64,000 nucleotides of DNA from Betaproteobacteria bacterium (GTDB lineage: Bacteria > Acidobacteriota > Vicinamibacteria > Vicinamibacterales > CAVVIG01): the NCBI GenBank assembly GCA_050257855.1, contig JBLMXQ010000028.1, forward strand, positions 241 to 64,240. The letters run 5' to 3'. Below, in pieces: positions 2 to 48,234 of the stretch. Position 1 is the first letter of the stretch; the number at the start of each line of letters is the position of its first letter. The translations under genes were made by a program, and so were the position numbers. Below the pieces are notes generated by a model. The model did no database searches, was not told where the DNA came from, and was given only the letters and a program-made list of their open reading frames with translations.

Positions 2-3000
2 TACCAGATGGTCGCTGCCGACGCGGACAACGATCCGCTGGCCTACTCGCTCACCCAGGCGCCGGACGGGATGACGGTTTCCGCCGGCGGCGTCATTTCG
101 TGGACACCGGCGACGGCCCAGATCGGGTCGCAGAGCGTCGCGGTTACCGTGAGCGACGGCCGCGGCGGCACGACCACCCAGTCGTTCACGGTCGTCGTCG
201 AACCGGGCATTACGGCTATCGACGCGACCCCTGCGCTGCTGCGGTTCTCGAGCGTCGGAGTGGATCGACCGCTGGCCGTGACGGCGCTCCGATCGGACGG
301 CTCGTCGATCGACGTGACTGCCTTGGACACGACCTACGAGTCGAGCAACACGTTCGTCGCGACGGTGAACGGCGGCGGCGCCGTCCACGCGGTCGCGAAC
401 GGAAACGCTACCATCACCGTTCACCACGGCTCTCTCACGGACACGGCCGCGGTGATGGTGGAAACCGGCGTCACGCTCGACTCGCTCGATCTGTCGCCGC
501 CGGCGGAGACGCTTCGCAGCGTTCCGGCATCATACGCGCTCACGCTGCGGGGCCACTTCTCGAACGGCGACGTGCGCGATCTGACCGCCGCGGCCGGCAC
601 CGTGTATCAATCCTCCAATCCGGCCGTCGCGACGGTGGATGCTACCGGACACGTGACCGCGACCGGTCCGGGCGATGCCGCCGTCACGGCCCGGACCGAC
701 ACGCTGACGGCCTCGGCCGCCGTGCACGTGTTCGTGAGCACCGGCGTCGGCTTCCTGCGCGGCGTCGCGTTCGACGATTCGAAGGGTCTTCCCCTCGCCG
801 GCGCGTCAGTCACGCTCGTCGCAGACGGCGGCGGCCCGCTCGCCCCTCCGACGACGACGACGGCCGACGAGCAGGGTCGATTCGCGGTCGAAGGCCGCGC
901 CGGCGACGCGATCGTGCGTATCGAGAAGGCAGGATTCACGAGTGTCGAGCGGAGCGCGCCGATTCCCGAGGGCAGCGCGGCGACACTGCTCGACGCGCGC
1001 CTCACGCCCGTCGACGCCCGGGCGAACACGATCGCGTCGGCCTTCGGCGGCGAGGCCGACGACACGACCCTCGCCTTCAGGCTGACAGTGCCGCCCGGCG
1101 GGCTTGCTGCCAACACGGATCTGCGCCTCACGCCGATCAGCGGTCAGGGTCTGAAGGATCGCCTTCCGTTCGGGTGGTCGCCCGTGGCTGCCGTCGATAT
1201 CTCGCCCGCTGGCCTCACGTTCTCGCAGACCGCATCGCTCGCCGTTCCGAACGCGGCGAGCCTCGCGGCGGGCGCCGGCGTCGTCGTCGCCACGTACGAT
1301 ACGTCGCGGCACGCCTGGATCGCCGTCGGAACCGCGCAGGTCAGCGGCGACGGCCGGTCGATCGTCGTGCCGCTCGCCGCCACCGGCCAGATCGCATGTG
1401 TCGCCGCCGACGACGCACCGTTCACGCCGGCCACACCTGCGATCGGCGACGTGCTGGGCGGCAGTCCGGGCGTCGCCCTGCCGGCTGATATCACGGCGAC
1501 CGGCACGGTCGTTCCCCGGTCCGCCCCGCCCGGGGACAAGGCGCGAGCGGTGGGACGGGTGCTGCTGCGCTCCACGGCCCCCCTGCCGAGCGGCACGGTC
1601 CTTCGCGCCAGCGTGACCGAGCGATTCGATCTGGCTGACCAGTCGCAGATCGTCCCGCAGCCGTTTGGGGAAGACATCGTTCTCTATTCGCGCGGACGGC
1701 CCACCGGTGACGGCATCCTGGGCGCCAGCTTCCCGATTACGCCTTCGCGGAGCTTCACGATCCAGGAACTGCTCACCGGTGTGGTGTCGGTCGACGTCAA
1801 CCCGCCGGCCGCCGGGACGACAGCGACGATCCTCGGAGCGGCGGGCGGCACAATCACGAATGCTTCGGGCGACACGCTGGAGATCCCGGCGTCGGCCCTC
1901 GCAGGCGATACGGTGTCCCAGCTTCGGCGCGAGGACGATCAGACGATTCTGCCGGTCCCGTCCGGATTCGACCTCGTGGCAGCGCTCTACGTGGACCTTG
2001 CCGGCGCCACGCTGGCACAGCCGGCGCGGCTCTCGATTGCCGCGCCCTCATCCGTTCAGCCGGGCGATCAGCTGCTTCTGGCGCTCGTCTTCCAGGACCC
2101 GGCCGGAACGCTTCGGCTCCGCATCGTCGGCGTCGGCGCCTTCGACGCCGGACGTATCGCGAGCGTGACCGGTGTTGGCACCCTCGGTTTCCAGGGCGTG
2201 ACAGCCGGCGGTCACTATCTCTTCCTCCGATCGCAACAGCCGGTCGGCTTCCTGGCTGGACGAGTCCTCGGGACCGACGGCACGACGCCGAAGGCGCAGA
2301 CGCTGGTTACTGCCGATACGACACCCTTCGCCGACGCCAGTTCAGCGAGCGGCGCATTCGTTGTCGCCGGGCTCGTCGGCGCCGACACCGCGCTCCGCGC
2401 GCTGGACACCCTGACGCATGATGCTGCGGCGCGGACGGTACACGTGAACACGCGCGACGAGGTCGTGGCGAGCGACGTCACGCTCGCCGTCACTGCGCTG
2501 ACGGTCATCTCCACCGCTCCAGCGGCGAATGCGACGAACGTGGCGCTCGATACCTCGCTCAGCATCGATTTCTCGGACGCGCTCGATCCGGCGAGCATCA
2601 GCGACGCGAGCGCCGCGCTGCAGACCGGCGGCGCCCCGGTCGCGATCCAGCAGACCCTTTCGTCCGATCGCCGCCGCCTCGTGATTCGTCCCTCGGCGCC
2701 GCTCCAGGGGAAATCGACGTACTCGCTGGCGCTCGCCGGCTTGAAGACGACGACCGGCCGGCCGCTCACCGGGTTCACCGCGCTCACGTTCACGACGCTC
2801 GATCCCTCCAGGCCGGCAGTCATCGATTCAGGGATCATCACCGCCGATCTGCCGGACCAGGACGGCTTCGTGCTGATTACCGGAGGGGCCGGCGCCGCGG
2901 AGGCCAGTTCGGCCGTGACGGCGACGAACCTGCGGACGCAGGAGACCGCCACGGTCCTGGCGGACGGCGATGGATCATTCCGCGTTCGAGTGTCCGCGCT

Positions 3001-5119
3001 GATCGGCGACGAGCTGTCGATCGGCCTGAACGACAGCTCCGGACGCGAGGCAACCATCTCGCTCGACCAGCTCAGGGGAGCCGACGGCACGACGACAGTC
3101 AGCGAGCGCGGCGGCAGCATCGCCGGCGCGCACGGCAGGCTCGGAACGATCCTGCCGCGGGCCCTCTCGCAGGCCGGGCTGTTCCGGATCGACGACCTCG
3201 CCGCCGGCGTCGCACTGGCCGCCCTGCCGGCCGGCTTCACATACGTCGATCAGTTCCACTTCTCCGCCGACGCGGCACAGTTCAACAGCCTTTCCGGGCT
3301 CACGCTGGCCGAAAGCCAGAACCGTTTCCCTGCGCAGTCGTCTTCGAGCGCTCCGTTCGTCGCCTCGGGACAGCTCACCGTTCCCGCTGATTTCCTCGTC
3401 AGCGGATCGCTGCGCTTCACGGCGACCGCCGTCGATCGGGGCGGCATCCGCCGATCGGCGTCGTCGTCGGTGGTCGTGGTGGCCTCGGGCGCCGATGGTT
3501 CGTCTGCGGAGAGCAGCCAGGCGGCCGACTTCCCGACTGTCTTCGTCGTGGCACCGAAGCAGGCCGTGCCGGGTCAGGCAGTGGAGACGAGCGCGGTCGC
3601 CCCGGCGGCGCGCGTCGATCTCGAGATCCCGGCGCCGGCAGGTCTCGATCCGGCAGCCACGCTGCTGCTCGTTCGGAGCACCACGGTCGACAATCAGCCG
3701 AAGCTGCTCGTCCTCGACGCGTTCAGCATCGTCGTGCGGGACGGCGTCACGCTGCTGCGCACGAGCGGCCGCGAGTTGCCCGGCATGTCGACGACCGGGG
3801 ACTACGCGGTCGTCGCGTCCAGCGATCCGATCTCGTTCGTGACGGGCCGGCTGAGCGGATCGACCGCCATCGCGTCGCTCGACAATTCACCGTTCGTTTT
3901 CCGGACCGACGGCCCCAATGGTTCGTTCGCCCTGCCGGCGCGGGCGGGACAACCCTTCTCGATCCAGTATCTCGATGCGTCGAGCGGCGCGGTCGTCGGG
4001 ACGTCGAGCGGCAACGCCCCGGCGACCGGCGGCGTCGATCTCGGCCAGCCGCTCGCTCCTCCAGCCTCCGGGCTGACGGTGACCGCCGACCCCGACGCTC
4101 ACGCCATCGTCGACATCGGCGAGCCGCTGACGTTCCACTTCTCCGAGCCTGTCGACGGACGCACGCTCGCCGGCGGCATCGTCGTGACCGACGGCGCCGG
4201 CGCACGCGCGATCGGATCGATCACCCTTGCCTCCGACGGGGCCACCGCAACCTTCAAGCCCTCGAGGCGCTGGAAATTCGGAACGACTTACCGCTGGGGC
4301 GTTGCGACCAGCGTGGTCGCCGTCTCTGGCGTGCACCAGACGCAGGCGGCCGCCGGCGCCTTCACGACGTTCGCGCCCACGGTCGTCGGCACGGCGGCGA
4401 TCGGAGCGGCGCACGACGTCGCGGTTGCCGGCGCGCTCGCCGTTGCCGCTACTGACGCCGGCCTGCTCACGATCGACGTGTCGTCACCGCTGGCGCCGGC
4501 GGTGCAGGGCCAGGTGCCGCTCGACGGCGGCGCGCATGGCGTCGCGCTGCTGCCCTCCACGACGTTCACCGATCGGCTGAATCAGACGCACGCCGGGACG
4601 TTCGCGACCGTCGCCGACGGCGGCGCCGCCGGCACCGGTCGCCTCGACGTCATCGACGTGACGACGGCGGCCGCGCCGGTCGGAATCGGATCAGCTCGCG
4701 TGAGTGCGAGCGGCGGCACGCCGAGTGCGGTCGCCCTCACCTCCGATCAGCGGGCGCTGGTCGGAATACAGGGCGTCGGCGTGGCAGCGGTCGGGATCGC
4801 CGGCGCCGTCCCGGCCGACTCGGGCAATCCCGCGAGCCCTGTCGCAGCCCGCTATCCATCCGGGGCGAACGAAGACATCAATCAGGCCGCCGTGCTCGGC
4901 GAACGCGTGCTGACGGCCGGCGCCGCCGGGCTGACCGTGCTGGACGCCGCGACGCTCACGCGAAGGGGCGGCGCGTCGACGGCCGGAAACGCTCAGGGCG
5001 TCGCCGTTCTCCCGGCGTTCTCGATGGACGTGAACGGCGACGGTACGATCGACGCTGCCGCGGAGACGTTCGATCTCGCCCTCGTCGCGAACGGCGCCGA
5101 TGGTGCGCTGCAGTTCTAG
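2..5119 (+). CDS. giant extracellular repeat protein, N-terminus cut by the window edge (1705 codons visible)
   Basis: The frame is open from the first full codon at nt 2. The ORF-track ATG at 8 is internal, because residues DADNDPLAYSL..GVISWTP already read as mid-domain. By-eye motifs (no HMM run): a cadherin-like/putative-Ig unit; two Big_2-like units (..NTFVATVNGGGAVHAVANGNATITV.., ..NPAVATVDATGHVTATGPGDAAVTA..); CarboxypepD_reg-like units (GFLRGVAFDD.., GFLAGRVLGTDG..); SbsA/Big_5-like units (..STAPAANATNVALDTSLSIDFSDALDP.., ..LTFHFSEPVDGRTL..); then LVIVD-like propeller repeats. Stops at TAG 5117-5119. Confidence 0.85.
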   Translation, partial: YQMVAADADNDPLAYSLTQAPDGMTVSAGGVISWTPATAQIGSQSVAVTVSDGRGGTTTQSFTVVVEPGITAIDATPALLRFSSVGVDRPLAVTALRSDGSSIDVTALDTTYESSNTFVATVNGGGAVHAVANGNATITVHHGSLTDTAAVMVETGVTLDSLDLSPPAETLRSVPASYALTLRGHFSNGDVRDLTAAAGTVYQSSNPAVATVDATGHVTATGPGDAAVTARTDTLTASAAVHVFVSTGVGFLRGVAFDDSKGLPLAGASVTLVADGGGPLAPPTTTTADEQGRFAVEGRAGDAIVRIEKAGFTSVERSAPIPEGSAATLLDARLTPVDARANTIASAFGGEADDTTLAFRLTVPPGGLAANTDLRLTPISGQGLKDRLPFGWSPVAAVDISPAGLTFSQTASLAVPNAASLAAGAGVVVATYDTSRHAWIAVGTAQVSGDGRSIVVPLAATGQIACVAADDAPFTPATPAIGDVLGGSPGVALPADITATGTVVPRSAPPGDKARAVGRVLLRSTAPLPSGTVLRASVTERFDLADQSQIVPQPFGEDIVLYSRGRPTGDGILGASFPITPSRSFTIQELLTGVVSVDVNPPAAGTTATILGAAGGTITNASGDTLEIPASALAGDTVSQLRREDDQTILPVPSGFDLVAALYVDLAGATLAQPARLSIAAPSSVQPGDQLLLALVFQDPAGTLRLRIVGVGAFDAGRIASVTGVGTLGFQGVTAGGHYLFLRSQQPVGFLAGRVLGTDGTTPKAQTLVTADTTPFADASSASGAFVVAGLVGADTALRALDTLTHDAAARTVHVNTRDEVVASDVTLAVTALTVISTAPAANATNVALDTSLSIDFSDALDPASISDASAALQTGGAPVAIQQTLSSDRRRLVIRPSAPLQGKSTYSLALAGLKTTTGRPLTGFTALTFTTLDPSRPAVIDSGIITADLPDQDGFVLITGGAGAAEASSAVTATNLRTQETATVLADGDGSFRVRVSALIGDELSIGLNDSSGREATISLDQLRGADGTTTVSERGGSIAGAHGRLGTILPRALSQAGLFRIDDLAAGVALAALPAGFTYVDQFHFSADAAQFNSLSGLTLAESQNRFPAQSSSSAPFVASGQLTVPADFLVSGSLRFTATAVDRGGIRRSASSSVVVVASGADGSSAESSQAADFPTVFVVAPKQAVPGQAVETSAVAPAARVDLEIPAPAGLDPAATLLLVRSTTVDNQPKLLVLDAFSIVVRDGVTLLRTSGRELPGMSTTGDYAVVASSDPISFVTGRLSGSTAIASLDNSPFVFRTDGPNGSFALPARAGQPFSIQYLDASSGAVVGTSSGNAPATGGVDLGQPLAPPASGLTVTADPDAHAIVDIGEPLTFHFSEPVDGRTLAGGIVVTDGAGARAIGSITLASDGATATFKPSRRWKFGTTYRWGVATSVVAVSGVHQTQAAAGAFTTFAPTVVGTAAIGAAHDVAVAGALAVAATDAGLLTIDVSSPLAPAVQGQVPLDGGAHGVALLPSTTFTDRLNQTHAGTFATVADGGAAGTGRLDVIDVTTAAAPVGIGSARVSASGGTPSAVALTSDQRALVGIQGVGVAAVGIAGAVPADSGNPASPVAARYPSGANEDINQAAVLGERVLTAGAAGLTVLDAATLTRRGGASTAGNAQGVAVLPAFSMDVNGDGTIDAAAETFDLALVANGADGALQF

Positions 5120-5440
5120 CGCGTGCCCGCCATGGGCGATCCCGTGCTGCTGTCCGTCGTGCACTTCACGAGCGAGACGACGAGCGTCGCGCTCGATGCG
5201 AACGAGCGGATCGCGTATGTCGGCCTGGGCGCGCGCGGCGTGGCGCTGGTCGACCTGGACGGCCCCGCCAGCGTGCAGCCGATCGATCTCGATCACGACG
5301 GCGTCGACGATCGGATCCTGGGCGTCATCGACACGCCGGGCAGCGCCGGACGGCTCGCGCTGGCGCTCGACCGGGGACTGGCGTTCGTGGCCGACGCGTC
5401 GGCCGGACTGACGGCCATCCAGCTCCTGCCGCCGCGAACC
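4415..5440 (+). other. LVIVD-like beta-propeller repeat region (about seven repeats) spanning the ORF1/ORF2 boundary; coordinates approximate
   Basis: Repeats read by eye: HDVAVAGALAVAATDAGLLTIDVSSPLAP; HGVALL..ATVADGGAAGTGRLDVIDVTTAAAP; SAVALTSDQRALVGIQGVGVAAVGI; AAVLGERVLTAGAAGLTVLDAATL; QGVAVLP..LALVANGADGALQF[TAG]RVPAMGDPVLL; TSVALDANERIAYVGLGARGVALVDLDGPASV; GRLALALDRGLAFVADASAGLTAIQL. The fifth unit contains the TAG at 5117-5119. Confidence 0.55.
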
Positions 5441-8400
5441 TCGTTCACGAGCCTCGAGCGCGACCCGATCGCGGGCCGCACGGGCGACGAGCAGAGCATC
5501 CTGACGAGCGGCGTCGCCTTCACCTCGGATCAAGCGATCGAGGTCTCGGTCAACGTGGCCGCCTCTTCACGCGACCGTCTCGTGCTGCGGATCGACGAAC
5601 GGCCCGATCCGACGGGCACGCCCCGGCTGTCGTTCGCCGACGGGGCCCTCAGCACGCCGCTCGAGCCAGGACTCAACGCGTTCTCGATGCCGATCGAGCC
5701 CGCGGCCGCGGCCGGCGGCAGCACGGTGGCGCTCGTCGTGCAGACAGTAGCGGGCGCGACCGTCGCGCGGCAGACGTTCCGGTTGGCGCCGTTCGATGCT
5801 TCGACCGCGGCGATTCGATCGCTGGTCGTGGCGCCCGATGCGGTGAGCCTCGATCTGAATCAGCAGTTCGCGCAGCTCTCGATCGCCGGAGTGCTCGACG
5901 ACGGCACGACGATCAACCTGACAGGCGAACCCGCGACCCGGTTCGCCATTTCGAGCGATGCCGTCGCCACGGTGAACGCCAGCGGTCTCGTGCTGGCGAA
6001 CGCGGGCGGCCATGCCATCGTGACGGTCACACACGGCGGGCTGGCCGCAGAGGTGCCGGTGAGCGTCGACCTGCTGGCCGCCGTCGTCGGATTCGAGACG
6101 ACGGAGCCGTTCGTCACGCTGACATCGGCCGGTGACAGAAAACCGCTCTCCATCGACGTGAAGTTGTCGGACGGCGGGCTCGAACCGTTCTCGAGCGGTC
6201 TCGGGACGTTCGAGACGAGCAATCCTTCGGTCGCGACGGTCGACGCTGCCGGCAACGTCGTGGCGGTCGGAGAAGGAACGGCTCTCATTACGGTCCGGTC
6301 CGGAAACGCGGTCGCTGAGGTGCACGTGGCGGTCGAGTTCCGGACGCCCCCGGTCGTCTCCTCGATCGCACTGGCGGCGCCGGCAACTGTTCCAAGCGAC
6401 AGCGGCCAGGCGACGTTGTCGGCTCGCGTGACCGGAACCGGGTCTCTCGAAGGTCTGGCCGTCACGTTCGCGCTGCAAGGGCAGACCGGCGCCTCGTCGA
6501 CCGCACAAACCGATTACGACGGAATCGCCGCCGGGATCCTCCGGGGGCTGCACGCGCCCGGCACGTTCACCGTGCAGGCCTCGGTCGTCAACCCTGCCGA
6601 CGGAACGACGTTGTCGGCTGCAGCGACGGTCACCGTCGAACGCGCAGGCGGGGACATCGAGCCCAATGACACCGTCGCGGGAGCGATCCCGCTCGCCCCC
6701 GACACACCTGTCAGCGGCAACCTCGGCCCGGGTGATCTCGTCGATGTCTACGCCACGACCTCGTCTACGCCTGGCACGCTGACGGCCGCGCTGACGCTGC
6801 CCGTCGACGCGGATCCTGCGTCGCTGCGCGTGGTGTTCCTCGCCGCCGACGGCAGCGAGCTCGCGCGGACGACGCCATCCAGCCATCGCCAGAATTTCAG
6901 GCAGGACGTCGCGGCGGGCAGCGCGTTCGTCGCCGTCGAGTCGACCGGGCCTTCGGCGGCGTATCAGCTCGAGACGCGAATGCTCCAGGGTCCGATCGGC
7001 ATCGCGTCGGTCTCTCCGTTGTCCGGCGGACCGGGTACGCCGGTCGCCATCGTGGGCACCGGTTTTTCGCTCGATCCGACCGAGACCCGGGTCCTCTTCA
7101 ACGGAGCCCTGGCCAAGGTCGTGTCCGCCACGCCGACGCGCATCGATGCGGTCGTCCCGGCCAACGCCATCGACGGCCCCGTCCGCGTCGTGAGCGCTGC
7201 GATGGCGGCTGACGGCCCTGTCTTCACGGCAGGCGCGACGAGCCGCCCGCCGATCACGCTCGCGTCGACCAGGAGCGAGAACCTGCGGTTCGATCCCGTC
7301 GCGCATCTTCTCGTCGACGCCACCCGACTGCTGATCTTTGCGGATCCGGTGGTCGACCGGACGCAGATCGAAGCACTCGTCGGCGGTCTCGGCGGAACGA
7401 TCATCGGAGCGACGCCGGCGCTCAATGCGTACTACGTCGAGTTCGCCGCCAACCAGACGATCGCGGGGCTGGCGGCCATCAGGCGCCAGCTGGCCCAGAG
7501 CCCGCTCGTGCTGCACGTCCTCCGGGATACGTTCGCCACTCCAGCCGGCCAGGCCATCGACCTGCGCGACAAAGCAGGAGTGTGGCCCGGGACGGACCTT
7601 CCCAGAGCGCTTGCGTTCGACCTCTCGAAGATCTTCGAAGCGGTCGACCTGATCCGGAGCACGCGTCCGTTCACGGACAGCACGAAGCTGGCGCCGGTCC
7701 ACGTGGGCGTAATCGACACGGGATTCATGCCGTTCAAGGCCAGCGAATTCCAGGCTCAGGGCCAGACCGTCGTCACGCTCTTCAGGTCGGCAGCCAACGT
7801 CGGCCCGTTCTCCTCCGGCAACCTCGGCCTGATCGATCCCGTCGGGCACGGCACGGAGGTGACTGGGATCATCGCAGCCACGAACGACGGCGTCGGCGCC
7901 AGCGGGGCCCTGAACGACCTCTTCAGGCCTGGCGAAGCGCCGTTCCAGGTGCTCGTGTACGGCGTGGCCGATCCGCTGTCCGGCAGGCTCTCGTCGGCGC
8001 AGATCTTCGCGGCCCTCGCCGCTCTCGCGGCTCGAGGCGATGTCGACGCCGTGAACATGAGCTTCGAAACCAAGTACACCGGCCAAACACCCGAGTTCAC
8101 CGACGACAGTCAGGCGTTCCTCGACGCGTTCGCGTTGTTCGGCGGCCGCACGGCGCTCGTCGCGGCGGCAGGAAACGACGGCGTCGATGCGCAATTCGTC
8201 GTGCCGGCCGCGCTGTCGAAGCGAACCGCCGCAGTCATTACTGTCGGTGCAGTCGCGGTTGCCAACCTCGACGGGAGCGGGGAAGGCGCCGACGCCCGCG
8301 CGATCTTCAACGACACGGGGGGCGACGTCGAGAACGGCGACGTCCCGTGCCGCGCCGGCACCGCGACGCTGGAGTCGAACTGCGGCTCCGTCGTGACGCT

Positions 8401-11400
8401 CGCCGCCGCGGGTGAAGACATCTTCACGACGAGCACCTTCGCACCTGGATATCTCGATGGCGCCGTCGCGGCAGGCACGTCGTTCGCCGCCCCGATCGTC
8501 ACGGCGATCGTCGGGATGCTGCAGGCGATCCGGACGGCGGGCGCTCAGCCGCTGACCGCCGCCTTCATCCGCGATCTCCTCGTCAGCAGCGCCGACGACA
8601 TCTCGGCCACCTGGGGCGCCGGCCCCATGCGGCGTCTCGATGCCTTGAACGCGGTCCGCGCCGTTCTGCCGCCATCCGGGACGCAGATGATCTACGTGGC
8701 CGATCAGGACGCCGTCAACGACAACGGTCTGCCGCCCGGGCGGATTATCGGCATCGACGTCGACCCGAAGACGGGCCAGCCGATTCTTCCGCCGAATCAC
8801 AAGGTGATCCCGCTGACGTTCACGAAGAACGGCATCACGTTTACCGGGGCCCGCCCCACCGCGCTCGCAATCTCGCCGTCCGGCGAGAAGTTCTATGCGG
8901 TCGTCCGGAGCGTTGCACCGGATCTCGGCGACGGCGTGCTCGTCGTCAATACGCTGAGCAACGAGGCGGAAGACTTCATCCCCTTCTCCGGGGTGGCGTT
9001 TGCCGCTCCCGCGGGCGGCGCCCCGCCCGGATCGGGCGCGCCGGTCCTGCTCTCGAACCTGCGGCCCGGAATGGTGTTCTCGAAGGACGGGCGCCTGCTC
9101 TACGTCGCCGTCGGCACCGGCATCGCGATCGTCAACACGACCGAAGAGAAGCTGGTTCGATCGTTCGCCGACCTGCCGGCGGCGTTCAAGACGCTCGCGG
9201 CCGGGCAGTTGCCGGATCTCGCGTGGCGACAGAGCGCCGTTGCCGTGGCCGTGGCCGCCGGAATCAACACGACGCAGGGCCACCGGCCGGGTGTGGCCAT
9301 CAATGGCCTCACGCTGTCACCAGACGGGCGAACGCTGTTCGCCGTCGTCAGCACCGGTGGTGGCGGCGGTACGCAGCCCGGCGGCGTGATCCCCATCGAT
9401 GTCGATCTGTACAAGGATGCCAGGCCCGACGTCGCCGGCCTGCAGTCGGATCTGAGCGGTTACTTCACGCCGATCGGCACGACCGGGGTCGTGCCGATGT
9501 CGAGCGCGGGTGATACCGCCGGCGGTGACGAGCCCGGAGCGGCGGCGGTCAGCGGAAACGGCAAGCATCTCTATCTGGTCAACGGCGGCCTCGACTTCTT
9601 CGAGGCGATTCCTCCGGCCGATCTCGATCTGGCGAAGTACGGGATTCTGCTCGCCGGTCCCGCAGCCATCTCGTTCGGCGGCTCAGGTCTCGCTGGACTG
9701 CTGGCGACGATCGGCGGCTTTGGAAGCCTGGAAAGCTCGCTGTACGCGCAACTGCTCGCCGACATCAAGGCGCAGGCCTCGAGCGGCGTGACGTTCATCG
9801 GCGCGCCGGGCTTCTCCGGGGTGTTCGACCTGCAGCCCGGGACGGCGCAGGCTCCGCCCTCGCTCACCCAGTCGTGGCTGTTCCCGAGCGAGGTCTCGTT
9901 CGGCTGGAACCCGAACGTCGCCGGTCAGGCGCTCGTCGTGAACCAGTTCCACATCAAGGGCGTTTTCGCGAGGCGGCCGTTCGACATCGCCATGCGGCCG
10001 GACGGCAGGCGCGCGGTCGTGCCGTTCTTCCAGACGGGGAACGTCGGCATCCTCGATCTCGAGCGGCAGGCGCAGTTCCTGTCGCCGCCGGGCGCGACGC
10101 CGAAGCCGGCATTCTCGGGCGTCGCGCCGGATCTGTTCCAGGGCGTGGTGGCCGTCACGCCGGCGCTCGCGCTGGACAACCAGCTCTGGCCGCAGCGCGG
10201 CGCCTTCAAGATTGCCGGCACGCCGAACTACGTTCCCAGCCCGGACGAGAGCCTGCTCTTCACGTGGGACGCCGAGTACGCGCAGAACGGACGCTTCTCG
10301 GTCGCGTCGCACGCCGGCAACGGCGACCCGCGGACTGTGACGGCGCCGATACCGGACTTCGTCACGAACACCGACAATCGCTTCAGGCTGACCGAACTCG
10401 GCGCCACCTTCAACGGCAACAGCGTCTCGTGGGTCGAGCACGGGCAGACCATCAGCGGCAGCATCGGCGACACCGTCTCGCTGCAGCGCGGCGGCGGCGC
10501 GATCAGCATCACCAGCGACGCGGCGATCGACGCCGACTTCAACGCGCACATCGGCTCGACGACCGTCGACCAGGACAATCAGGTGCGCCCCTACTACTCG
10601 GGGCTGCCGGTCGCCGGGGCCGTGACCAATCTCGACGTCTACACGCCGGGAACCGCGACCCCGGTCGCCTTCCATCGGCCGCGTGGCATCGCCATCCAGC
10701 CGTTCGTCGGCATCGAAGTGCCGCGGTTCGGCGATCACGTCACGGCCCATGAACCGGTCGGCGTCGTGTGGCGTGACGCGCGCGTCCAGCGTGTTCGCTT
10801 CGAGCTCGGCGATCCGGACGCGCAGGACTCCTTCGGCCAGGCCGCCACGCTCAACACGTTCTCCGAGGTGCTGTCCGACGAGGCCGCTCGCGAACGTGCG
10901 TTCGACCTGACGTTCGGCGCCCTGTTCGCGCCGGGCACGCAGGCCGCGCAGGGCAAGCGCTACCGCATCACCGCCGAGATCCTCGACGGATCGAGCGACG
11001 AGATCTCGCGAACGTCCATCGACGTCACGTTCGACGACGCGCAGAAGCCAATCGACACGACGACGAACGCGGACAAGCTGCAGCTGACCCCCCGCCTGAA
11101 CTTCTTCGTCACGGCGCCGACGAGCGGACCCGGCAAGCCGCTGAAGCTCGTTCTGATCCCGGCCGACGGCGGTCCGCCGCAGGACGTGACGGCGCAGGCG
11201 ACGTTCCAGACCATCGACCACGGCCTGTTGAAGACCGACATCCCCGGCTTCGGCACGATGGAGGACGCTATCTTCAGCAAACTGGAAGCGAACGGCGTGA
11301 CCGTCCCCTTCCGAATCGCGGACGTGGCCGTCGACAACGGCAGCCTGAAGGCGATTTCCGGCGGCGTGCAGGCGGTCGAAGGGTGCATCACGGTCGGCGC

Positions 11401-14400
11401 CCAGACGAAGTGCTCGAACCCCGTCATCGTCATCGCGGGCGTCGAGCTCGACTCGATCGATCTCTCGCCGGAATCGCTGCTCACCGGCGCGCTGCAGGGC
11501 GCCACTGCGGCGGCGAACCTCGCGAAGAACAACCTGACGAAGAAGATCAAGGACGTCGAGATCAATCCGCCCATGATCCTGGCGGCCGACGACAACGCCG
11601 TTGCACTCGACAAGGGCGTGGTGTCGCTCGACAACGTCCAGTTCCAGTTTTTCGGCGGGCCGTGGAAGCTGGGGCTCAAGGACCTGTACGACGCCGTCGG
11701 AAACGTGCTGACGGACCTGGGCCCCGAGACGGCGCCGGAACAGATCGTTCTGAAGCTGGTCGAGGTCGGGGTCGGGCAGTGCGCCGCCGGCCTCCTCGAC
11801 TACGCGCCCGAGGACGCAGCGGTCGCCGCGATGTCCCCGACCGGGATCCCCTGTGTGGAGAACGTCGTCCAGGCCGGGGCACCCGGCCTGACTCACATCA
11901 CCGGCACGCTCGACCTCACGAGCCTCGACCTCGGCAAGAAGTCGGACGACGTCACGGTCTTCGTGCTGCCCTCGCTGGAGAGCGCGCAGATCGAGCCGGC
12001 AACGACCGTCATCCCGGATCTCGCCACCAAGGCGTCGATCCGCACGTTCGCCCGGATGAAGCTGGCGCAGGCCGCGCACTTCCACATGCCGGACAAGTAC
12101 CGGACGTTCACCGAGTTCGTGGACAAGGTCCTGCCGGGCAAGTGGAAGACGATCGGAACGAACGGAATCGACTACACCTTCGACGGCGGATACCGAGTCT
12201 CCTTCAAGTTCCAGTTGTCGCTGGACGACGCAGGCAAGAAGATCGATTTCAGCGACGTCGAGATCGGCTTCCACACGCCGAACGTCTTCAACAGCTACGA
12301 CGTCGGCCAGCCGGTAACCGCAGTCGGATCGGGCAGCGGCGCGGACCACGATTCGATCGCACGGGTCAGCTCGCCGGGATCATTCGAAGCTACCGAGAAG
12401 GTCGAGGCCGTCGGCGCCGCGGGAACGACCTTCGTGGGCAACAAGGTCAGCATGCCCCTGATGGGCGACGCGCGGGCGACCGGCAAGATCGTCGTCTGCT
12501 CGGACCCGGCCGGCTGCGAACAGCCGCAGCTCACGCCCCGGATCGTCTTCTCGCAGGTCGGCGCGAACTGTTCCAGGCAGCTGCGCGTCCAGGCCGTCGC
12601 GGCCGACGGCACGGCCCGCGACGTCACCGGCGATCCGGATACGCAGTACTTCTCGCTGCAGGGCGAGATCGACAAAGGGACGATCACGGTCGCCGGCGTC
12701 TCGATCCCGGCGCTCCAGACGGCGGTCGATGCCGCCGTGAACGCGATCAAGCAGAAGCTGTCGGCGAACGGCATCACGGTGCCGTTCGCGCACGGTCGCG
12801 TGAGCATCTCGCCAACCGGCGCGCTGACCGTGAACGCTCCGGGTCTCGAGCTGGTGTGGGCGACGTACAAGGGCAAGTTCGCCAGCTTCTCCGTGGTTCT
12901 GGCGGGGCTCAAGCTGGGCAAGCTGTCCCTCGAGCCCCTGTCGCTCGCGACCGCTCCGCTGCAGACCGACCCGGGCGAGGCACTCTTCGAGAAGGTCGCC
13001 AAGGCGGTCGGCGCCGACGGCGATCCGCCGATGATCCTGGTCAACTCCGACCCGGGCGTGCCCTTTTCGTTCCTGAATCGGCAGGGGCTCGTGCGTCTGC
13101 ACGACCTGACGTTCAACGTGCTGGGAGCGAGTATCGGCGTGCGCGATCTGATCGGCGCGCTCAAGGACTTCATTGCACCGGAGGTGGCCGCGGTCGCGAA
13201 GGAAGAGAACGACCCCAACCCGCAGGATCCCGCTCCCCCGACGTTGCTGACCGCCATGTTCAAGCTCGCGGAGTTCTCCGTCGAGGAGGCGGCCGCGCAG
13301 CTGCTCGACTTCGAGGTCGACGACGGCAAGGACGTCGTCGACCTCACGGCGGAACTGCCGAAGGGCGTCGTCACCGCCAAGAAGCCCGGCGTCGCGACGA
13401 TCAAGGCCTCGCTCGCGCTGGGCGACGACGCCTGCGGCCTCGGCAAGGCGACGGGCGAGATGATGGTCTGGGTGCTCCCCGGTCTCCAGTCGCTCGCCCT
13501 CGAGCCGCCGCATGTCGTCATGTGCGCGAACACCGCGGATCCGGGCGCCACGATCAGGTCGATCGTCTGCTCCCAGCCCCTGCCGCCCGCGACGCTGCAG
13601 TTGCCGAGCGAGTTCACGACGGTCGGCGAGTTCGCCGATCACGTGCTGCCGCAGAGCCTGCAGCCCCCCATACCCGGCCAGGCAAACATCGATCACACGT
13701 TCCGGGACGGCGATTTCGAGCTTCGCGTGAGAGCGACAGTGACGGTCAACTTCAGCGACATCACGCTGTCGAATCTCCAGATCTGCTTCACGGTCCCGAA
13801 CGGGCTGGACGGCGCGCCAGGCGTTCCTCCGTTCATCACGAACGCCTACAACTTCGACGATCCGTCCGTTGCCTTTCTGAACGGCGCGTCAGCGTTTTCT
13901 GCCTTCGTGAAGGATCTCGGTCAGCCCGGGGAAACGGAAATCGATAACACCGTGGAGGTTGCGACGATTGCCAGCCTTGCGGCGGCGGGCACGGTGACCG
14001 TGGTGAACTGCCCGCCCGGGTCGCCGGTCATCGTGGTCGACAAGGCGCTCGACGCCACCGGGCCGGGCGTCGTCGCCGGGCCAAACGGTCCGGTCGTGTC
14101 GCCCGGCGCGACCGTGCATTACATCGTCCGCGTCGGCAACGTCGGAACGCAGGAGATCGACAACCTTCAGGTGAGCGAAGCCGCAACGCTGACCGATGCG
14201 AACGGCGCGCCGCTTCCCGACCAGCCCCAGATCGTCAGCTGTACGACCGCGTCGGCTCCCCAGCAGTCGAGCTGCTTCGTGCCGGCGCTGCAGCCCAACG
14301 AGTTCGTCGAGTTCGACGTGCTCGTGTCGGTCCCGCAGACCGCGACGGGCGCGGTGCTGACGAACACGGCTTCAGCCGGCGGCTCGACCGCGCAGGTGTC

Positions 14401-17089
14401 GACGCCGACGGCAAGCCCGACGATCACGGTGACCAAGCTGCTCATCGACCCCGGGCCGAGCGGCGCGCCCGACTCGACGATCGACCCGACGGGGGCGCCG
14501 GTGCTCAAGCCCGGCGAGCAGGTCAGATATCGAATCGAAGTCCGGAACGTCGGTACCGCCGACGAACAGAACATTGCCCTCTCGGATCTGACGACCCAGG
14601 TGAACGCGTCCGCCCAGCCGACCACGCTGTTCCAGAAGCAGTATCCGCCATTCAACCTCGCCGCCGGCACGAGCACGCAGTTCGAGGAGACGGTCACCCT
14701 GCCGGCGGATTGCGGCAGCGGCCAGACGATCCGGAACGTCGCGACCACCGCCGGCAACCTGGCCACCGTCACCAATCTCCTCAGATGCTCGCCGCAGCTG
14801 TCCATCGTCAAGACGCTGGTCGATCCGCCGGTCGCCGACGGCGTCGCCATCGCGGGCACGACAGGCCCGCTGCAGCAGGTCCGCTACCGCATCGAGGTCA
14901 GCAACAGCGGGACTGCCGAGGCGTCGAACGTCACCGTGACCGACGATCCGCGCCTCGAAAAGAGCGGCCAGCCGCCGATTTCCCTGGCGCCGCCAGGGAC
15001 GGTTCCAGGCTGCGCGCTCGGCACGATTCCGCCCGGCGGCTCGGCGCAATGCGAGCTCGTCTTCGCGTTCGGCACGGAGGCGAACGGCACCAACCTCGTC
15101 AACACGGCGACGGTCGCCGCTCCGGCAGGCGGACCGTCAGCGACGACCACGAATCCTGTGATCGCGCCGACCCTGGTGATCAAGAAGGAGATCATCGCGC
15201 CGGCGCCGGATCCGCAGACCGGCCACTCGACGGTGCTCGCCGGCACGACCATCACCTATCGCGTCAGGGTCACGAACAAGGGCATCGCGGCGGCGACCAA
15301 CGTCGTGCTGAACGATCAGCCGTTCATCTCGGACGTGAGCGGCCAGGTCACGCCGCTCACGAACTCCCTGTTCACGTTCCCGGCGATCGACCCGAACCAG
15401 ACGATCGAGGAGCCGGTCGCCGTGGCGGTGCCGCTCGGGTTCGGCGGCGGAGAGCTCCTGAACCACGCCGAGATCACGAACGTGCCCGGAGTCAACCCCG
15501 TCGAGGTCGTGAGCGATGTCGTCCAGCCGCAGCTGGTCGTCGAGAAGCACCTCGTCGATCCGCCCGGGGACCTGTCGCGCGTGGTCCGCGGCTCGACGGT
15601 GACCTATGCCGTGACGGTGACGAACACGGGCACCGCGATCGCCCCGGGAGTCGCCGGCACGGACACGGCGTCGATAGACGGAAGGATATTCGCCGGGCCT
15701 TCCCCGCTCGCGTTCGGAGACATCGCCGCGGGACAGTCGGTGACCAAAACGGTCGTCCTGAGAGTGCCCACGCTCGGCGCGATCGTTCAGCCCTGCCCGC
15801 CTGGCATCCCGTGCTCCGTCACGACGCCGCGAATGACGAACATCGCCGAGATTCCCGGCACGGCCGCGGTGACCACGAACGACGTCGTCAATCCGAAGCT
15901 GCGCGTCACCGAAGCCCTCGTCGATCCGCCGCCGGTCGCGAATCAGCCGACCGCGGTGCCCGGCGGATCGGTTGCGACGTACAGCATCACGGTCGAGAAC
16001 ACCGATACCATCGCCGCGGAGGCCGTCCTGCTCGCCGACAAGGCGCGGGTGGGCGCCGTCACCCTGTTCGACCGCACGTTCCAGCTCGGAACGCTGCAGC
16101 CGGGCGACCGACGCGTCCAGCTCGTCCGCGTCGAGGTTCCCGTCGGCTTCGACGGCGCATCGCTCGTCAACGACGCGACCGTCGACTACCTGCAGGAAGC
16201 GGCCGCCACGACGAGCAACACGATCGCCGATCCGACCGTCGTCCTCGACAGGCAACTGCTGGACGGCCCCGGCGTGATCGACGTCGCGGGTCAGCCGCCA
16301 ATCGTGGTTAGTGGCTCGACGGTCTCGTACGAGGTCACGGCACGCAACATCGGCACGACGACCTTGAGCGGCATCACGTTGACGGATGCGCCCAGCGTGC
16401 AGGTGCGAGCCGCCGACGGAACGGCGACGGAAACCGCGCTGCCCGTCGCGACGGCAGCGATCGCGACGCTGCTGCCGGGCCAGACGTTCACCACGACGAT
16501 TGCCGTGGCTGTGCCTCCCTCCGGCAGCGGCGGGTTCCTGCTCAACCGGCTGACGGCGAACGTGCCCGGGAGCGGCACGCTGACAACCGAGGACGGCATC
16601 GTCGACCCGGGACCGGCGGGCCCGATCGTCACCGAGATGGTGCTGGCGCCCCGGCAGGATTGGAGCGACAGCGCCGGCGGCAACAACCGTCCGTTCGACA
16701 GCACGCCGGGAAACGGCCTCGTCGATGCGGGCGATCTCTGGATCGAGGTGCTGAACCCGACGACGGCCACTCAGAACTGGCAGGTCCGGATCACCGACGC
16801 GACGGGCGCGACATTCAGCAAGACGCTCGGACCGCCGGATGCGAGCTCCACGGTGCGCCTGCTGACCGGCTTCGGCGCGGTCACGCTACCCGTTGCGAGC
16901 GTCGATGTCCTCGACGATCAAGGCGTCGTGCAGAAGCACTTCGATGTCGCTGCCATGGAGCGACAACTCGGGCGGGCGACCGGACCGGACGACGAATCGC
17001 TTGCTTGGTCGGTCCTCGGGCTGCCGTCGCCCGATACCCAGCAGTTCGTGAGAGGCAGGGCGACCATCGGGGTGTTCTCGCCGTTCTAG
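5123..17089 (+). CDS. giant multidomain exoprotein (3988 aa) with an embedded subtilisin-like S8 peptidase domain, Ig-like domains, beta-propeller blades, two ~480-aa modules of unknown family, a DUF11-type repeat array and a lamin-tail-like C-terminus
   Basis: Uninterrupted 11,967-nt ORF from GTG 5123 (first ATG 5132) to TAG 17087-17089, in the same frame as the upstream ORF. S8 motifs: VGVIDTGF (Asp865), GHGTEVTGIIAA (His909), AAAGNDG, GTSFAAPIVTA (Ser1120). Also Big_2-like (..AVATVNASGLVLANAGGHAIVTV.., ..NPSVATVDAAGNVVAVGEGTALITV..), PPC-like (GGDIEPNDTVAGAIPL..), IPT/TIG-like (..VSPLSGGPGTPVAIVGTGF..) and DUF11-like units (..VRYRIEVRNVGTA.., ..ITYRVRVTNKGIA.., ..VTYAVTVTNTGTA..). No N-terminal signal peptide and no obvious Shine-Dalgarno. 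Confidence 0.9.
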   Translation: MPAMGDPVLLSVVHFTSETTSVALDANERIAYVGLGARGVALVDLDGPASVQPIDLDHDGVDDRILGVIDTPGSAGRLALALDRGLAFVADASAGLTAIQLLPPRTSFTSLERDPIAGRTGDEQSILTSGVAFTSDQAIEVSVNVAASSRDRLVLRIDERPDPTGTPRLSFADGALSTPLEPGLNAFSMPIEPAAAAGGSTVALVVQTVAGATVARQTFRLAPFDASTAAIRSLVVAPDAVSLDLNQQFAQLSIAGVLDDGTTINLTGEPATRFAISSDAVATVNASGLVLANAGGHAIVTVTHGGLAAEVPVSVDLLAAVVGFETTEPFVTLTSAGDRKPLSIDVKLSDGGLEPFSSGLGTFETSNPSVATVDAAGNVVAVGEGTALITVRSGNAVAEVHVAVEFRTPPVVSSIALAAPATVPSDSGQATLSARVTGTGSLEGLAVTFALQGQTGASSTAQTDYDGIAAGILRGLHAPGTFTVQASVVNPADGTTLSAAATVTVERAGGDIEPNDTVAGAIPLAPDTPVSGNLGPGDLVDVYATTSSTPGTLTAALTLPVDADPASLRVVFLAADGSELARTTPSSHRQNFRQDVAAGSAFVAVESTGPSAAYQLETRMLQGPIGIASVSPLSGGPGTPVAIVGTGFSLDPTETRVLFNGALAKVVSATPTRIDAVVPANAIDGPVRVVSAAMAADGPVFTAGATSRPPITLASTRSENLRFDPVAHLLVDATRLLIFADPVVDRTQIEALVGGLGGTIIGATPALNAYYVEFAANQTIAGLAAIRRQLAQSPLVLHVLRDTFATPAGQAIDLRDKAGVWPGTDLPRALAFDLSKIFEAVDLIRSTRPFTDSTKLAPVHVGVIDTGFMPFKASEFQAQGQTVVTLFRSAANVGPFSSGNLGLIDPVGHGTEVTGIIAATNDGVGASGALNDLFRPGEAPFQVLVYGVADPLSGRLSSAQIFAALAALAARGDVDAVNMSFETKYTGQTPEFTDDSQAFLDAFALFGGRTALVAAAGNDGVDAQFVVPAALSKRTAAVITVGAVAVANLDGSGEGADARAIFNDTGGDVENGDVPCRAGTATLESNCGSVVTLAAAGEDIFTTSTFAPGYLDGAVAAGTSFAAPIVTAIVGMLQAIRTAGAQPLTAAFIRDLLVSSADDISATWGAGPMRRLDALNAVRAVLPPSGTQMIYVADQDAVNDNGLPPGRIIGIDVDPKTGQPILPPNHKVIPLTFTKNGITFTGARPTALAISPSGEKFYAVVRSVAPDLGDGVLVVNTLSNEAEDFIPFSGVAFAAPAGGAPPGSGAPVLLSNLRPGMVFSKDGRLLYVAVGTGIAIVNTTEEKLVRSFADLPAAFKTLAAGQLPDLAWRQSAVAVAVAAGINTTQGHRPGVAINGLTLSPDGRTLFAVVSTGGGGGTQPGGVIPIDVDLYKDARPDVAGLQSDLSGYFTPIGTTGVVPMSSAGDTAGGDEPGAAAVSGNGKHLYLVNGGLDFFEAIPPADLDLAKYGILLAGPAAISFGGSGLAGLLATIGGFGSLESSLYAQLLADIKAQASSGVTFIGAPGFSGVFDLQPGTAQAPPSLTQSWLFPSEVSFGWNPNVAGQALVVNQFHIKGVFARRPFDIAMRPDGRRAVVPFFQTGNVGILDLERQAQFLSPPGATPKPAFSGVAPDLFQGVVAVTPALALDNQLWPQRGAFKIAGTPNYVPSPDESLLFTWDAEYAQNGRFSVASHAGNGDPRTVTAPIPDFVTNTDNRFRLTELGATFNGNSVSWVEHGQTISGSIGDTVSLQRGGGAISITSDAAIDADFNAHIGSTTVDQDNQVRPYYSGLPVAGAVTNLDVYTPGTATPVAFHRPRGIAIQPFVGIEVPRFGDHVTAHEPVGVVWRDARVQRVRFELGDPDAQDSFGQAATLNTFSEVLSDEAARERAFDLTFGALFAPGTQAAQGKRYRITAEILDGSSDEISRTSIDVTFDDAQKPIDTTTNADKLQLTPRLNFFVTAPTSGPGKPLKLVLIPADGGPPQDVTAQATFQTIDHGLLKTDIPGFGTMEDAIFSKLEANGVTVPFRIADVAVDNGSLKAISGGVQAVEGCITVGAQTKCSNPVIVIAGVELDSIDLSPESLLTGALQGATAAANLAKNNLTKKIKDVEINPPMILAADDNAVALDKGVVSLDNVQFQFFGGPWKLGLKDLYDAVGNVLTDLGPETAPEQIVLKLVEVGVGQCAAGLLDYAPEDAAVAAMSPTGIPCVENVVQAGAPGLTHITGTLDLTSLDLGKKSDDVTVFVLPSLESAQIEPATTVIPDLATKASIRTFARMKLAQAAHFHMPDKYRTFTEFVDKVLPGKWKTIGTNGIDYTFDGGYRVSFKFQLSLDDAGKKIDFSDVEIGFHTPNVFNSYDVGQPVTAVGSGSGADHDSIARVSSPGSFEATEKVEAVGAAGTTFVGNKVSMPLMGDARATGKIVVCSDPAGCEQPQLTPRIVFSQVGANCSRQLRVQAVAADGTARDVTGDPDTQYFSLQGEIDKGTITVAGVSIPALQTAVDAAVNAIKQKLSANGITVPFAHGRVSISPTGALTVNAPGLELVWATYKGKFASFSVVLAGLKLGKLSLEPLSLATAPLQTDPGEALFEKVAKAVGADGDPPMILVNSDPGVPFSFLNRQGLVRLHDLTFNVLGASIGVRDLIGALKDFIAPEVAAVAKEENDPNPQDPAPPTLLTAMFKLAEFSVEEAAAQLLDFEVDDGKDVVDLTAELPKGVVTAKKPGVATIKASLALGDDACGLGKATGEMMVWVLPGLQSLALEPPHVVMCANTADPGATIRSIVCSQPLPPATLQLPSEFTTVGEFADHVLPQSLQPPIPGQANIDHTFRDGDFELRVRATVTVNFSDITLSNLQICFTVPNGLDGAPGVPPFITNAYNFDDPSVAFLNGASAFSAFVKDLGQPGETEIDNTVEVATIASLAAAGTVTVVNCPPGSPVIVVDKALDATGPGVVAGPNGPVVSPGATVHYIVRVGNVGTQEIDNLQVSEAATLTDANGAPLPDQPQIVSCTTASAPQQSSCFVPALQPNEFVEFDVLVSVPQTATGAVLTNTASAGGSTAQVSTPTASPTITVTKLLIDPGPSGAPDSTIDPTGAPVLKPGEQVRYRIEVRNVGTADEQNIALSDLTTQVNASAQPTTLFQKQYPPFNLAAGTSTQFEETVTLPADCGSGQTIRNVATTAGNLATVTNLLRCSPQLSIVKTLVDPPVADGVAIAGTTGPLQQVRYRIEVSNSGTAEASNVTVTDDPRLEKSGQPPISLAPPGTVPGCALGTIPPGGSAQCELVFAFGTEANGTNLVNTATVAAPAGGPSATTTNPVIAPTLVIKKEIIAPAPDPQTGHSTVLAGTTITYRVRVTNKGIAAATNVVLNDQPFISDVSGQVTPLTNSLFTFPAIDPNQTIEEPVAVAVPLGFGGGELLNHAEITNVPGVNPVEVVSDVVQPQLVVEKHLVDPPGDLSRVVRGSTVTYAVTVTNTGTAIAPGVAGTDTASIDGRIFAGPSPLAFGDIAAGQSVTKTVVLRVPTLGAIVQPCPPGIPCSVTTPRMTNIAEIPGTAAVTTNDVVNPKLRVTEALVDPPPVANQPTAVPGGSVATYSITVENTDTIAAEAVLLADKARVGAVTLFDRTFQLGTLQPGDRRVQLVRVEVPVGFDGASLVNDATVDYLQEAAATTSNTIADPTVVLDRQLLDGPGVIDVAGQPPIVVSGSTVSYEVTARNIGTTTLSGITLTDAPSVQVRAADGTATETALPVATAAIATLLPGQTFTTTIAVAVPPSGSGGFLLNRLTANVPGSGTLTTEDGIVDPGPAGPIVTEMVLAPRQDWSDSAGGNNRPFDSTPGNGLVDAGDLWIEVLNPTTATQNWQVRITDATGATFSKTLGPPDASSTVRLLTGFGAVTLPVASVDVLDDQGVVQKHFDVAAMERQLGRATGPDDESLAWSVLGLPSPDTQQFVRGRATIGVFSPF
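7690..8650 (+). other. subtilisin-like (MEROPS S8) peptidase domain inside the 3988-aa ORF; bounds approximate
   Basis: Catalytic codons located in frame: Asp gac 7715-7717 (VGVIDTGF), His cac 7847-7849 (GHGTEVTG), Ser tcg 8480-8482 (GTSFAAP), plus the oxyanion Asn context AAAGNDG. The order D-H-N-S is as in subtilases. Confidence 0.8.
8687..10060 (+). other. YVTN/lactonase-like beta-propeller blades downstream of the S8 domain; bounds approximate
   Basis: Recurrent blade signatures: LAISPSGEKFYAVV, MVFSKDGRLLYVAV, LTLSPDGRTLFAVV, AAVSGNGKHLYLVN, IAMRPDGRRAVVPF. Confidence 0.5.
11081..14005 (+). other. two tandem ~480-490-aa modules of unrecognised family (protein-level duplication): module A about 11081-12526, module B about 12527-14005
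   Basis: Collinear landmarks shared by the two halves: QLTPRLNFF/QLTPRIVFS; ANGVTVPF/ANGITVPF; NPPMIL/DPPMIL; VFVLPSLES/VWVLPGLQS; TEFVDKVLP/GEFADHVLP; IDYTFDGG/IDHTFRDG; IDFSDVEIGF/VNFSDITLSN. I recognise no known domain signature. Confidence 0.6.
14030..16620 (+). other. array of about seven DUF11-type (conserved repeat domain) units, followed by a lamin-tail-like C-terminal domain (16625-17086); bounds approximate
   Basis: Each unit carries a [LIV]x[VI]xKxx(x)DP.. start and a ..G(S/T/E)xVxYx[IV]xVxNxG(T/I)A.. core (seven read by eye). The C-terminus IVTEMVLAPRQDW..GDLWIEVLNPTTATQNWQVRITDATG resembles LTD domains. Confidence 0.6.
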
Positions 17090-17096
17090 TGCTCGA

Positions 17097-37697: not shown

Positions 37698-37774
37698 GAC
37701 TGCCTCCGCGCGAGTTCCTCTCAATCGGCGTGCCAGTCGCACACACGGTCACGTACAATGAAAGACACACGCTC

Positions 37775-38905: not shown

Positions 38906-38942
38906 TGTCCGCCGTTTCGGCCCACACGCGCCTGATGCTACG

Positions 38943-38984
38943 AGTTCCTAATTCCTGATTCTTAATTCATAATTCCCAATTGCC
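38943..38984 (+). repeat. six in-phase heptamer repeats (consensus AATTCYY) forming an AT-rich tract that abuts the moaA start codon
   Basis: Read directly: AGTTCCT AATTCCT GATTCTT AATTCAT AATTCCC AATTGCC, then GTG 38985. It is conspicuous against the GC-rich background. Confidence 0.85.
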
Positions 38985-44045: not shown

Positions 44046-44083
44046 CCGATATCGGAAGCGCACGGCCTCCAGATCGGCCTCTT

Positions 44084-44222: not shown

Positions 44223-44237
44223 AAGGAGAACAGAGAC

Positions 44238-44951
<714 letters not shown>

Positions 44952-45014
44952 GAGACGAGAAGCGGCTCAGGGCCAGGGGCTCGGAGCTGATGGCTCGCGG
45001 AGCTCAGAGGGCAC

Positions 45015-47471: not shown

Positions 47472-47503
47472 TAACAACATCCGGCAGCGCAGCAAGAACG
47501 CCA

Positions 47504-48172: not shown

Positions 48173-48234
48173 CGCCGCAACCAGCCGCCCATGTCGAGCG
48201 TCTAAGGGAGCAACTTCTTACCGGGGAGACCGCC

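Follow-up and report, generated by a model that had tools for sequence, protein, structure and literature searches.

In a 64,000-nt stretch of an Acidobacteriota contig (JBLMXQ010000028.1, positions 241 to 64,240; hereafter the window), two adjacent open reading frames (ORFs), ORF1 and ORF2, share one frame and are separated by a single TAG codon. We consider it very probable that they are one gene with a one-base lesion, and that the TAG is neither a designed gene boundary nor a recoding site. The uninterrupted gene would encode a giant secreted multidomain protein of a soil bacterium, and the protein's relatives read straight across the position. For the origin of the TAG, the best overall explanation is a genuine, very recent nonsense mutation, to which we give slightly better than even chances.

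A single TAG interrupts one giant reading frame

On translation, frame 2 from base 2 to base 17089 contains 5,695 sense codons and only two stops: codon 1706, which is the internal TAG at 5117-5119, and the TAG at 17087-17089 that ends the frame. A first-pass annotation, made by a model from the sequence alone, had described a single in-frame TAG splitting one ORF of more than 5,690 codons, and this description is accurate. Around the internal stop (5105-5137) the DNA reads GCG CTG CAG TTC TAG CGC GTG CCC GCC ATG GGC. Upstream of base 8, ORF1 has no stop, indicating that its 5′ end is cut by the left edge of the window. Third-position G+C content (GC3) is coding-like in both gene pieces (0.85 and 0.88, in a window of 69.4% G+C overall), and over the length of ORF2 the two other frames are broken by 99 and 12 stops; so long an open frame is thus no accident of composition.

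Homologues carry an aromatic residue at the TAG position

We used a 582-residue translation across the junction, with X at the stop, to query a collection of 5.8 billion proteins. This gave 17 matches, and 8 of the 12 aligned ones continue straight across the TAG position. The conserved block DGTLQF-Y-RVPxxGDPVLLS is unbroken in the homologues, with Tyr where the window has TAG. Among all spanning homologous proteins the residue at this position is aromatic in 21 of 21 (15 Tyr, 5 Phe and 1 Trp), and 12 full-length orthologues align it in one MAFFT column (Tyr in five, Phe in six and Trp in one). The orthologous loci, whose comparison at this codon the first-pass annotation had proposed, have a sense codon throughout: TAT in three of the five, TAC in one and TTC in one. 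Because the orthologous codons include TAT and TAC, the window's TAG is one third-position transversion from a Tyr codon.

Scanning a genome collection with a trimmed protein alignment yielded two orthologous loci, each with one uninterrupted ORF over the site and a signal-peptide-like N-terminus. The first (L001, CAVQZZ010000001.1) comes from an Acidobacteriota metagenome-assembled genome (MAG) and encodes 3,947 aa; the second (L002, DATBJJ010000183.1) comes from a Vicinamibacterales MAG and encodes 3,925 aa. When ORF1 and ORF2 are joined, they give a single BLASTP match to each of these proteins, covering window residues 1-3677 at 45.6-47% identity, so that both sides of the stop are homologous, in frame, to a single orthologous protein. 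Since this match begins at residue 326 of the L001 protein and residue 244 of the L002 protein, the left edge of the window has cut off about 244-326 N-terminal residues, among them the signal peptide. Without the disruption, the gene would comprise about 5,950-6,020 codons.

From 1.84 billion representative proteins, an exhaustive hidden Markov model search brought at least nine more full-length orthologues (3,818-4,837 aa), with a beta-propeller in mid-protein, as well as end-truncated ones such as P0062 (3,563 aa). These giant secreted proteins (L001, L002, P0041, P0057, P0095, P0143 and others) are 40-49% identical to the window protein over about 3,500 residues and share a collinear order with it: signal peptide, TIG/Ig, He_PIG/Big_9, Big_2, CarboxypepD_reg, Big_5, seven-bladed propeller, Big_2, TIG and Peptidase_S8. 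Unlike the window gene they are uninterrupted, and the L001 and L002 proteins do not have its C-terminal extension of about 2,018 residues with DUF11-type repeats. The first-pass annotation had suggested that ORF2 continues ORF1. This suggestion is borne out by orthologues that are single ORFs with one N-terminal signal, by the invariably aromatic residue and by a propeller that spans the stop. The contrary pattern that it named, two orthologous genes of which the second has its own signal-bearing start, was not found, the orthologues being unsplit.

Other records of the locus are themselves disrupted. L003 along its whole length, L005 at 5485-20003 and L006 at 2433-15606 are divided into many short gene calls by repeated frame changes, which are probably long-read indel errors. 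Because these assemblies of orthologous loci are frame-broken, the database proteins P0001-P0009 are mostly fragments with frameshifted tails. A metagenome scan with the protein alignment found no relative, and exact-protein look-ups of ORF2 (with two start choices) and of the downstream neighbour ORF3 returned no record. A 23-nt pattern spanning the stop, with the third codon base left free, had a sole match in metagenomes (L004), which we rejected as chance. Positions 1211-1233 of L004 lie in an unrelated SufS-like (cysteine-desulfurase-like) gene encoding LLQFYRVPAT, ...HPLLQFYRVPATLRAS....

The stop falls within a seven-bladed propeller

As a stand-in for the window sequence, we modelled P0001, its closest homologue (62-66% identity over this segment), with AlphaFold2. 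Residues 56-410 of P0001 are modelled as an all-beta region of about 29 strands (pLDDT about 90), in which Tyr304, the equivalent of the TAG, lies within strand 300-305 and is followed by about two four-stranded blades. In Foldseek this region matches the seven-bladed propellers of RACK1, G-beta and Groucho/TLE over about 365 columns (TMt 0.66-0.79), and P0001 is thus itself predicted to be a seven-bladed propeller. Transferred to the window, the TAG comes after about 248 of 357 propeller residues, leaving about 109 residues, or roughly two blades, encoded downstream. A fragment restricted to ORF1 (251 aa, pLDDT 91) overlays only partially on seven- and eight-bladed propellers (TMt 0.3-0.49), with much weaker E-values. 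As modelled, the propeller requires residues encoded on either side of the stop, and ORF1 alone would be unable to close it, contrary to the closure within ORF1 that the first-pass annotation had named as evidence against a single gene.

The same annotation had reported a repeat series of about seven LVIVD-like units running across the stop. That the series crosses the stop is confirmed by the continuous block of homology and by the seven-bladed model. The LVIVD name fares less well: the window's own match to the LVIVD family (PF08309) reaches 17.5 bits against a gathering cut-off of 20.2. PF08309 is present in several homologues (P0004, P0005 and P0013-P0017), and the modelled fold is seven-bladed as in LVIVD propellers, leaving the 'LVIVD-like' label for the window repeats loosely supported.

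The downstream part shows no decay

The features of the giant gene and of its downstream neighbour are collected in Table 1. In the subtilase domain of ORF2 the Asp, His and Ser catalytic motifs are intact (VIDTGF, GHGTEV and GTSFAAP) and match those of L002. The C-terminal extension includes DUF11/DUF7507/CARDB-like repeats at about 14789-15769. Although the extension is unmatched in L001 and L002, a final stretch of about 130 residues is similar to the end of L003, at 45-72% identity in three frame-shifted segments; P0118 and P0147 likewise align past 3,900 residues.

No further stop or frameshift occurs in the 11,967 nt of ORF2, where 2.0% of possible single-base changes would make a stop. 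From this we infer an upper limit of roughly 0.4% on divergence by neutral drift since the event. Of the lineage-specific changes in a three-way alignment, a share of 0.23 upstream of the stop and 0.28 downstream belongs to the window, whose lineage is not accelerated beyond the stop. In a 13-sequence alignment, the window has unique changes at 5 of 210 otherwise invariant columns upstream and at 9 of 132 downstream, within the range of the other orthologues by the same measure (2.4-6.0% upstream and 3.1-15.8% downstream). The start of ORF2, RVPAMGDPVLLSVVHFTSE, does not look like a signal peptide when judged by eye, in agreement with the first-pass annotation, and no C-terminal sorting domain was detected in ORF2 with Pfam or NCBIfam.

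Table 1. Features of the interrupted giant gene and its downstream neighbour in the window
Feature	Coordinates	Strand	Remarks
ORF1, upstream part of the giant gene, 5′-cut	2..5116	+	He_PIG/Big_9, Big_2, CarboxypepD_reg, Big_5, first ~five propeller blades
Seven-bladed (LVIVD-like) beta-propeller, 357 residues	4376..5446 (approx.)	+	Mapped from the model of homologue P0001
In-frame premature TAG	5117..5119	+	Aromatic codon in every homologue, mostly Tyr
Possible restart codons GTG 5123-5125 and ATG 5132-5134	5123..5134	+	Within the conserved 'RVPxxGDP' segment
ORF2, downstream part of the giant gene	5120..17089	+	3,989 codons, same frame, ending at TAG 17087-17089
ORF2 domains	5120..17089	+	Last propeller blades, Big_2, TIG, Peptidase_S8, DUF11/DUF7507 repeats
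Subtilase (Peptidase_S8) domain in ORF2	7697..8599	+	PF00082, E = 2.4e-18
C-terminal extension, ~2,018 residues, absent from L001 and L002	11039..17086	+	Orthologues end where window residue 3677 aligns
ORF3, second giant gene, 3,838 aa	17097..28613	+	Another frame; N-terminus signal-peptide-like, MMRKPGWIGAAAASFVVASS...

A genuine mutation or an error in the record

The interrupted gene resembles nonsense-disrupted bacterial genes in several respects. Its in-frame stop occupies a position at which all 21 spanning homologues have a sense codon and is one base away from the ancestral codon, homology continues in the same frame on both sides, and a long gene is a large mutational target. It differs from them in showing no secondary decay. 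ORF2 being free of decay, the lesion must be either extremely young or not real. Three explanations of the TAG that the first-pass annotation had listed are viable: a recent nonsense mutation, an error of base-calling or assembly, and heterogeneity in the population. That the lesion is biological, and not a consensus error, we put at even chances or a shade above.

Several observations argue for a genuine mutation. No frame errors occur across about 29 kb of giant-gene coding sequence, and the remaining window genes give full-length domain matches (for example, to AcrB positions 1-1020 of 1021). The assembly thus appears to have high per-base accuracy, making a consensus substitution error unlikely. 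Furthermore, only about 1.9% of substitutions in the giant gene would create a stop, so the chance that a rare error would also make one is small; by our own estimate, roughly 0.003-0.03 stop-creating errors are expected per gene at Q40-Q50. There is no repeat or homopolymer at the TAG site, and repeat-mediated misassembly, which we looked for near the stop, left no sign there. By contrast, a 17-kb gene is a large target for genuine inactivation.

The chief alternative is that the true codon is TAC or TAT within an intact ORF of about 6,000 codons, and that the TAG is an error of base-calling or assembly in the consensus, or a minority allele that the assembler fixed. We rate this as less likely than a genuine mutation but give it substantial weight. 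Only one base, in a conserved codon, is affected, the rest of the 17-kb reading frame looks functional, long-read metagenome assemblies of orthologous loci are often faulty, and the window's other CTAG tetranucleotides sit only at genuine stop codons.

Further points weigh against a genuine mutation or limit how firmly it can be read. The otherwise perfect 12-kb downstream ORF is equally expected from a base-call error. The public long-read assemblies of this locus (L003, L005 and L006) are error-ridden, though with shifts of frame rather than substitutions. The change produces a CTAG, and no other tetranucleotide in the window is as depleted (24 copies expected under a second-order Markov model and about 180 from base composition, but 4 observed). 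This fits a new mutation and an artefact alike; the four copies, at 5116, 17086, 48169 and 51144, each lie at the TAG stop of a plus-strand ORF. No near-identical sequence was present in the protein, genome or metagenome collections searched, the best relative being only about 57% identical.

Maintained splitting or recoding at the TAG

If the TAG were both real and maintained, the locus could be a split in progress that operates by reinitiation, or a leaky UAG-C stop aided by a hairpin, giving a short exported isoform and a tuned amount of downstream product. We consider such a maintained stop quite improbable.

Of the forms that it could take, incipient functional gene fission, in which translation reinitiates at GTG 5123 or ATG 5132 and selection retains both halves, is improbable but the least so. 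As in a coupled gene pair, potential start codons lie close to the stop, GTG 4 nt and ATG 13 nt past it, and ORF2 is intact with normal conservation. The Met encoded by the ATG is specific to the window sequence, relatives having Thr, Ile or another residue there. Nor would the missing Shine-Dalgarno (SD) sequence be an obstacle: an SD-like sequence precedes essentially 1 of 16 well-placed starts in the window (examples of these starts being 17097, 30043, 42780 and 47504), and the organism seems, from its sequence, to rely little on SD-led initiation. The first-pass annotation was thus correct that ORF2 has no visible SD sequence, but this carries no weight as an argument that ORF2 continues ORF1, as most window genes start without one.

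Against fission, no relative is split here and at least 21 read across the site. The cut falls within a propeller blade and not between domains, and ORF2 has no signal peptide or detected sorting domain, which would place the two halves in different compartments; in these respects, and in having orthologues that are single ORFs, the locus departs from a coupled gene pair. The GTG is the conserved Val codon of the 'RVP' motif (Val, Ile, Leu or Ala in homologues), and the ATG falls at a variable residue. Both are best read from the alignment as codons of the conserved RVPxxGDP segment and not as an evolved gene start.

Still less probable is programmed or exploited readthrough, whereby a near-cognate tRNA or a Tyr-inserting amber suppressor tRNA would decode the TAG and set the ratio of a short exported product to the full-length protein. 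The TAG is followed by C, and UAG followed by C is a weak termination context in Escherichia coli. The 120 nt from the stop (5117-5236) fold into a hairpin that starts 2 nt past it, at -64.2 kcal/mol, more stably than shuffled sequences (z = -2.3 to -2.4). This z-score lies at the extreme edge of 70 control windows from the same gene, but the fold window was picked post hoc, and the equivalent stretches in L002 and L003 have no such fold (z = +1.1 and +0.2). The hairpin has no Rfam match either, and its standing as a readthrough signal is marginal. We know of no case in which structure-stimulated UAG readthrough has been established for a bacterial chromosomal gene, and our literature searches gave nothing relevant on giant genes with in-frame stops in Acidobacteria or on bacterial UAG readthrough context.

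In programmed readthrough, as in the phage Q-beta A1 protein and retroviral gag-pol, conservation covers both the stop and its context, and the extension forms a functional module in its own right. The window has the same arrangement of one in-frame stop between an upstream product and an in-frame extension. Its stop, however, is unique to this sequence, occurring in 0 of 21 homologues, and cuts a folded domain.

UAG can also be read as an amino acid, through amber suppression by tRNA-Tyr(CUA) of the supF type or through pyrrolysine decoding, and in principle a Tyr-inserting suppressor would give back the ancestral residue and restore the ancestral protein. We found no suppressor tRNA, pyl gene or Rfam recoding element in the 64-kb window, whose sole tRNA is tRNA-Pro(CGG), and the gene is not of the methylamine methyltransferase type. 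Moreover, genuine termination at TAG is frequent in the window, where seven other ORFs end with it, each backed by Pfam or by composition (ORF2, an HlyD-like gene, two ABC ATPases, a histidine kinase, an MgtC/DUF4010 gene and an M14 peptidase), and efficient suppression would extend all of these as well. Nor does the pattern suggest reassignment of TAG, which occurs in frame only once in 5,695 codons while the other window genes are intact. The low-level readthrough that the first-pass annotation had offered as a way to set an isoform ratio thus lacks positive support: the stop is not conserved, TAG terminates seven other ORFs, and the hairpin, which is the one hint in its favour, is absent from orthologues.

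That the TAG is the true boundary of two ancestrally separate genes sharing a frame by chance is extremely unlikely: same-strand neighbours do share a frame one time in three, and the window has a real same-frame pair (the HlyD-like gene ending at TAG 44045 and the ABC ATPase gene after it), but homology, domains and propeller fold are continuous over this stop, all orthologues are single ORFs, and the junction has no intergenic spacer or signal peptide, with no promoter-like or terminator-like site in 4300-5600. The locus represents no new way of coding; it is a broken or mis-sequenced gene of an ordinary kind.

Predicted consequences of a genuine stop

On the favoured explanation of a recent nonsense mutation, the ancestral gene, in an organism resembling Vicinamibacterales (Acidobacteriota), would have encoded a Sec-exported multidomain protein of about 6,000 aa that combined Ig-like domains, a seven-bladed propeller, TIG, a subtilase and DUF11 repeats. 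In the sixth blade of the propeller, a conserved aromatic codon would have become an amber stop through one third-position substitution (TAY to TAG). With termination at 5117-5119, the exported product would be an N-terminal piece of about 2,000 aa that ends in a five-blade arc unable to close. The 3,989 codons downstream, with the subtilase and DUF11 modules, would go untranslated, or would yield protein at a low level through basal readthrough or through reinitiation at either GTG 5123 or ATG 5132. A product begun past the stop would have no signal peptide and would stay in the cytoplasm, so that these modules would miss their compartment; basal near-cognate readthrough might still supply traces of the full-length protein. 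The gene would effectively be a natural knockout or truncation allele.

The main value of the locus lies in annotation and quality control. Gene callers would report two proteins here, one 5′-truncated and 1,700 aa long, the other 'cytoplasmic', 3,988 aa long and composed of extracellular domains only, where there is a single gene of about 6,000 codons that carries one lesion. A real stop would make it a natural truncation allele of a giant surface or extracellular protein with a subtilase, conserved in Vicinamibacterales-like Acidobacteriota, and a small data point on how easily very large genes are lost. If it is an error, it demonstrates that one consensus substitution can halve a giant gene. 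Either outcome leaves the current understanding of decoding unchanged. The uncharacterised family of giant secreted multidomain proteins in these Vicinamibacterales-like bacteria is itself of some descriptive interest.

Neighbouring genes

ORF3, the second giant gene, begins 7 nt past the ORF2 stop and encodes eight CarboxypepD_reg domains together with Big_5, SpaA-like and Big_7 domains. Two related metagenomic loci share this gene order, L005 (ORF3-like gene at 20000-22634) and L006 (15892-18750). The junction between ORF2 and ORF3 is what a genuine gene boundary at this locus looks like.

Two adjacent radical-SAM genes of 391 and 209 aa lie at 37730-39614, adjoining an uncharacterised minus-strand ORF (36951-37742) and an MFS transporter. 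A MacAB-like efflux cluster occupies 42780-51147, with an HlyD-family adaptor, an ABC ATPase, a MacB_PCD/FtsX permease and a second ABC ATPase, after which come a sigma-54 activator and a PAS histidine kinase. The second same-frame TAG junction in the window, at 44045, is an ordinary boundary between the HlyD-like and ABC-ATPase genes, and is a harmless look-alike of the TAG in the giant gene.

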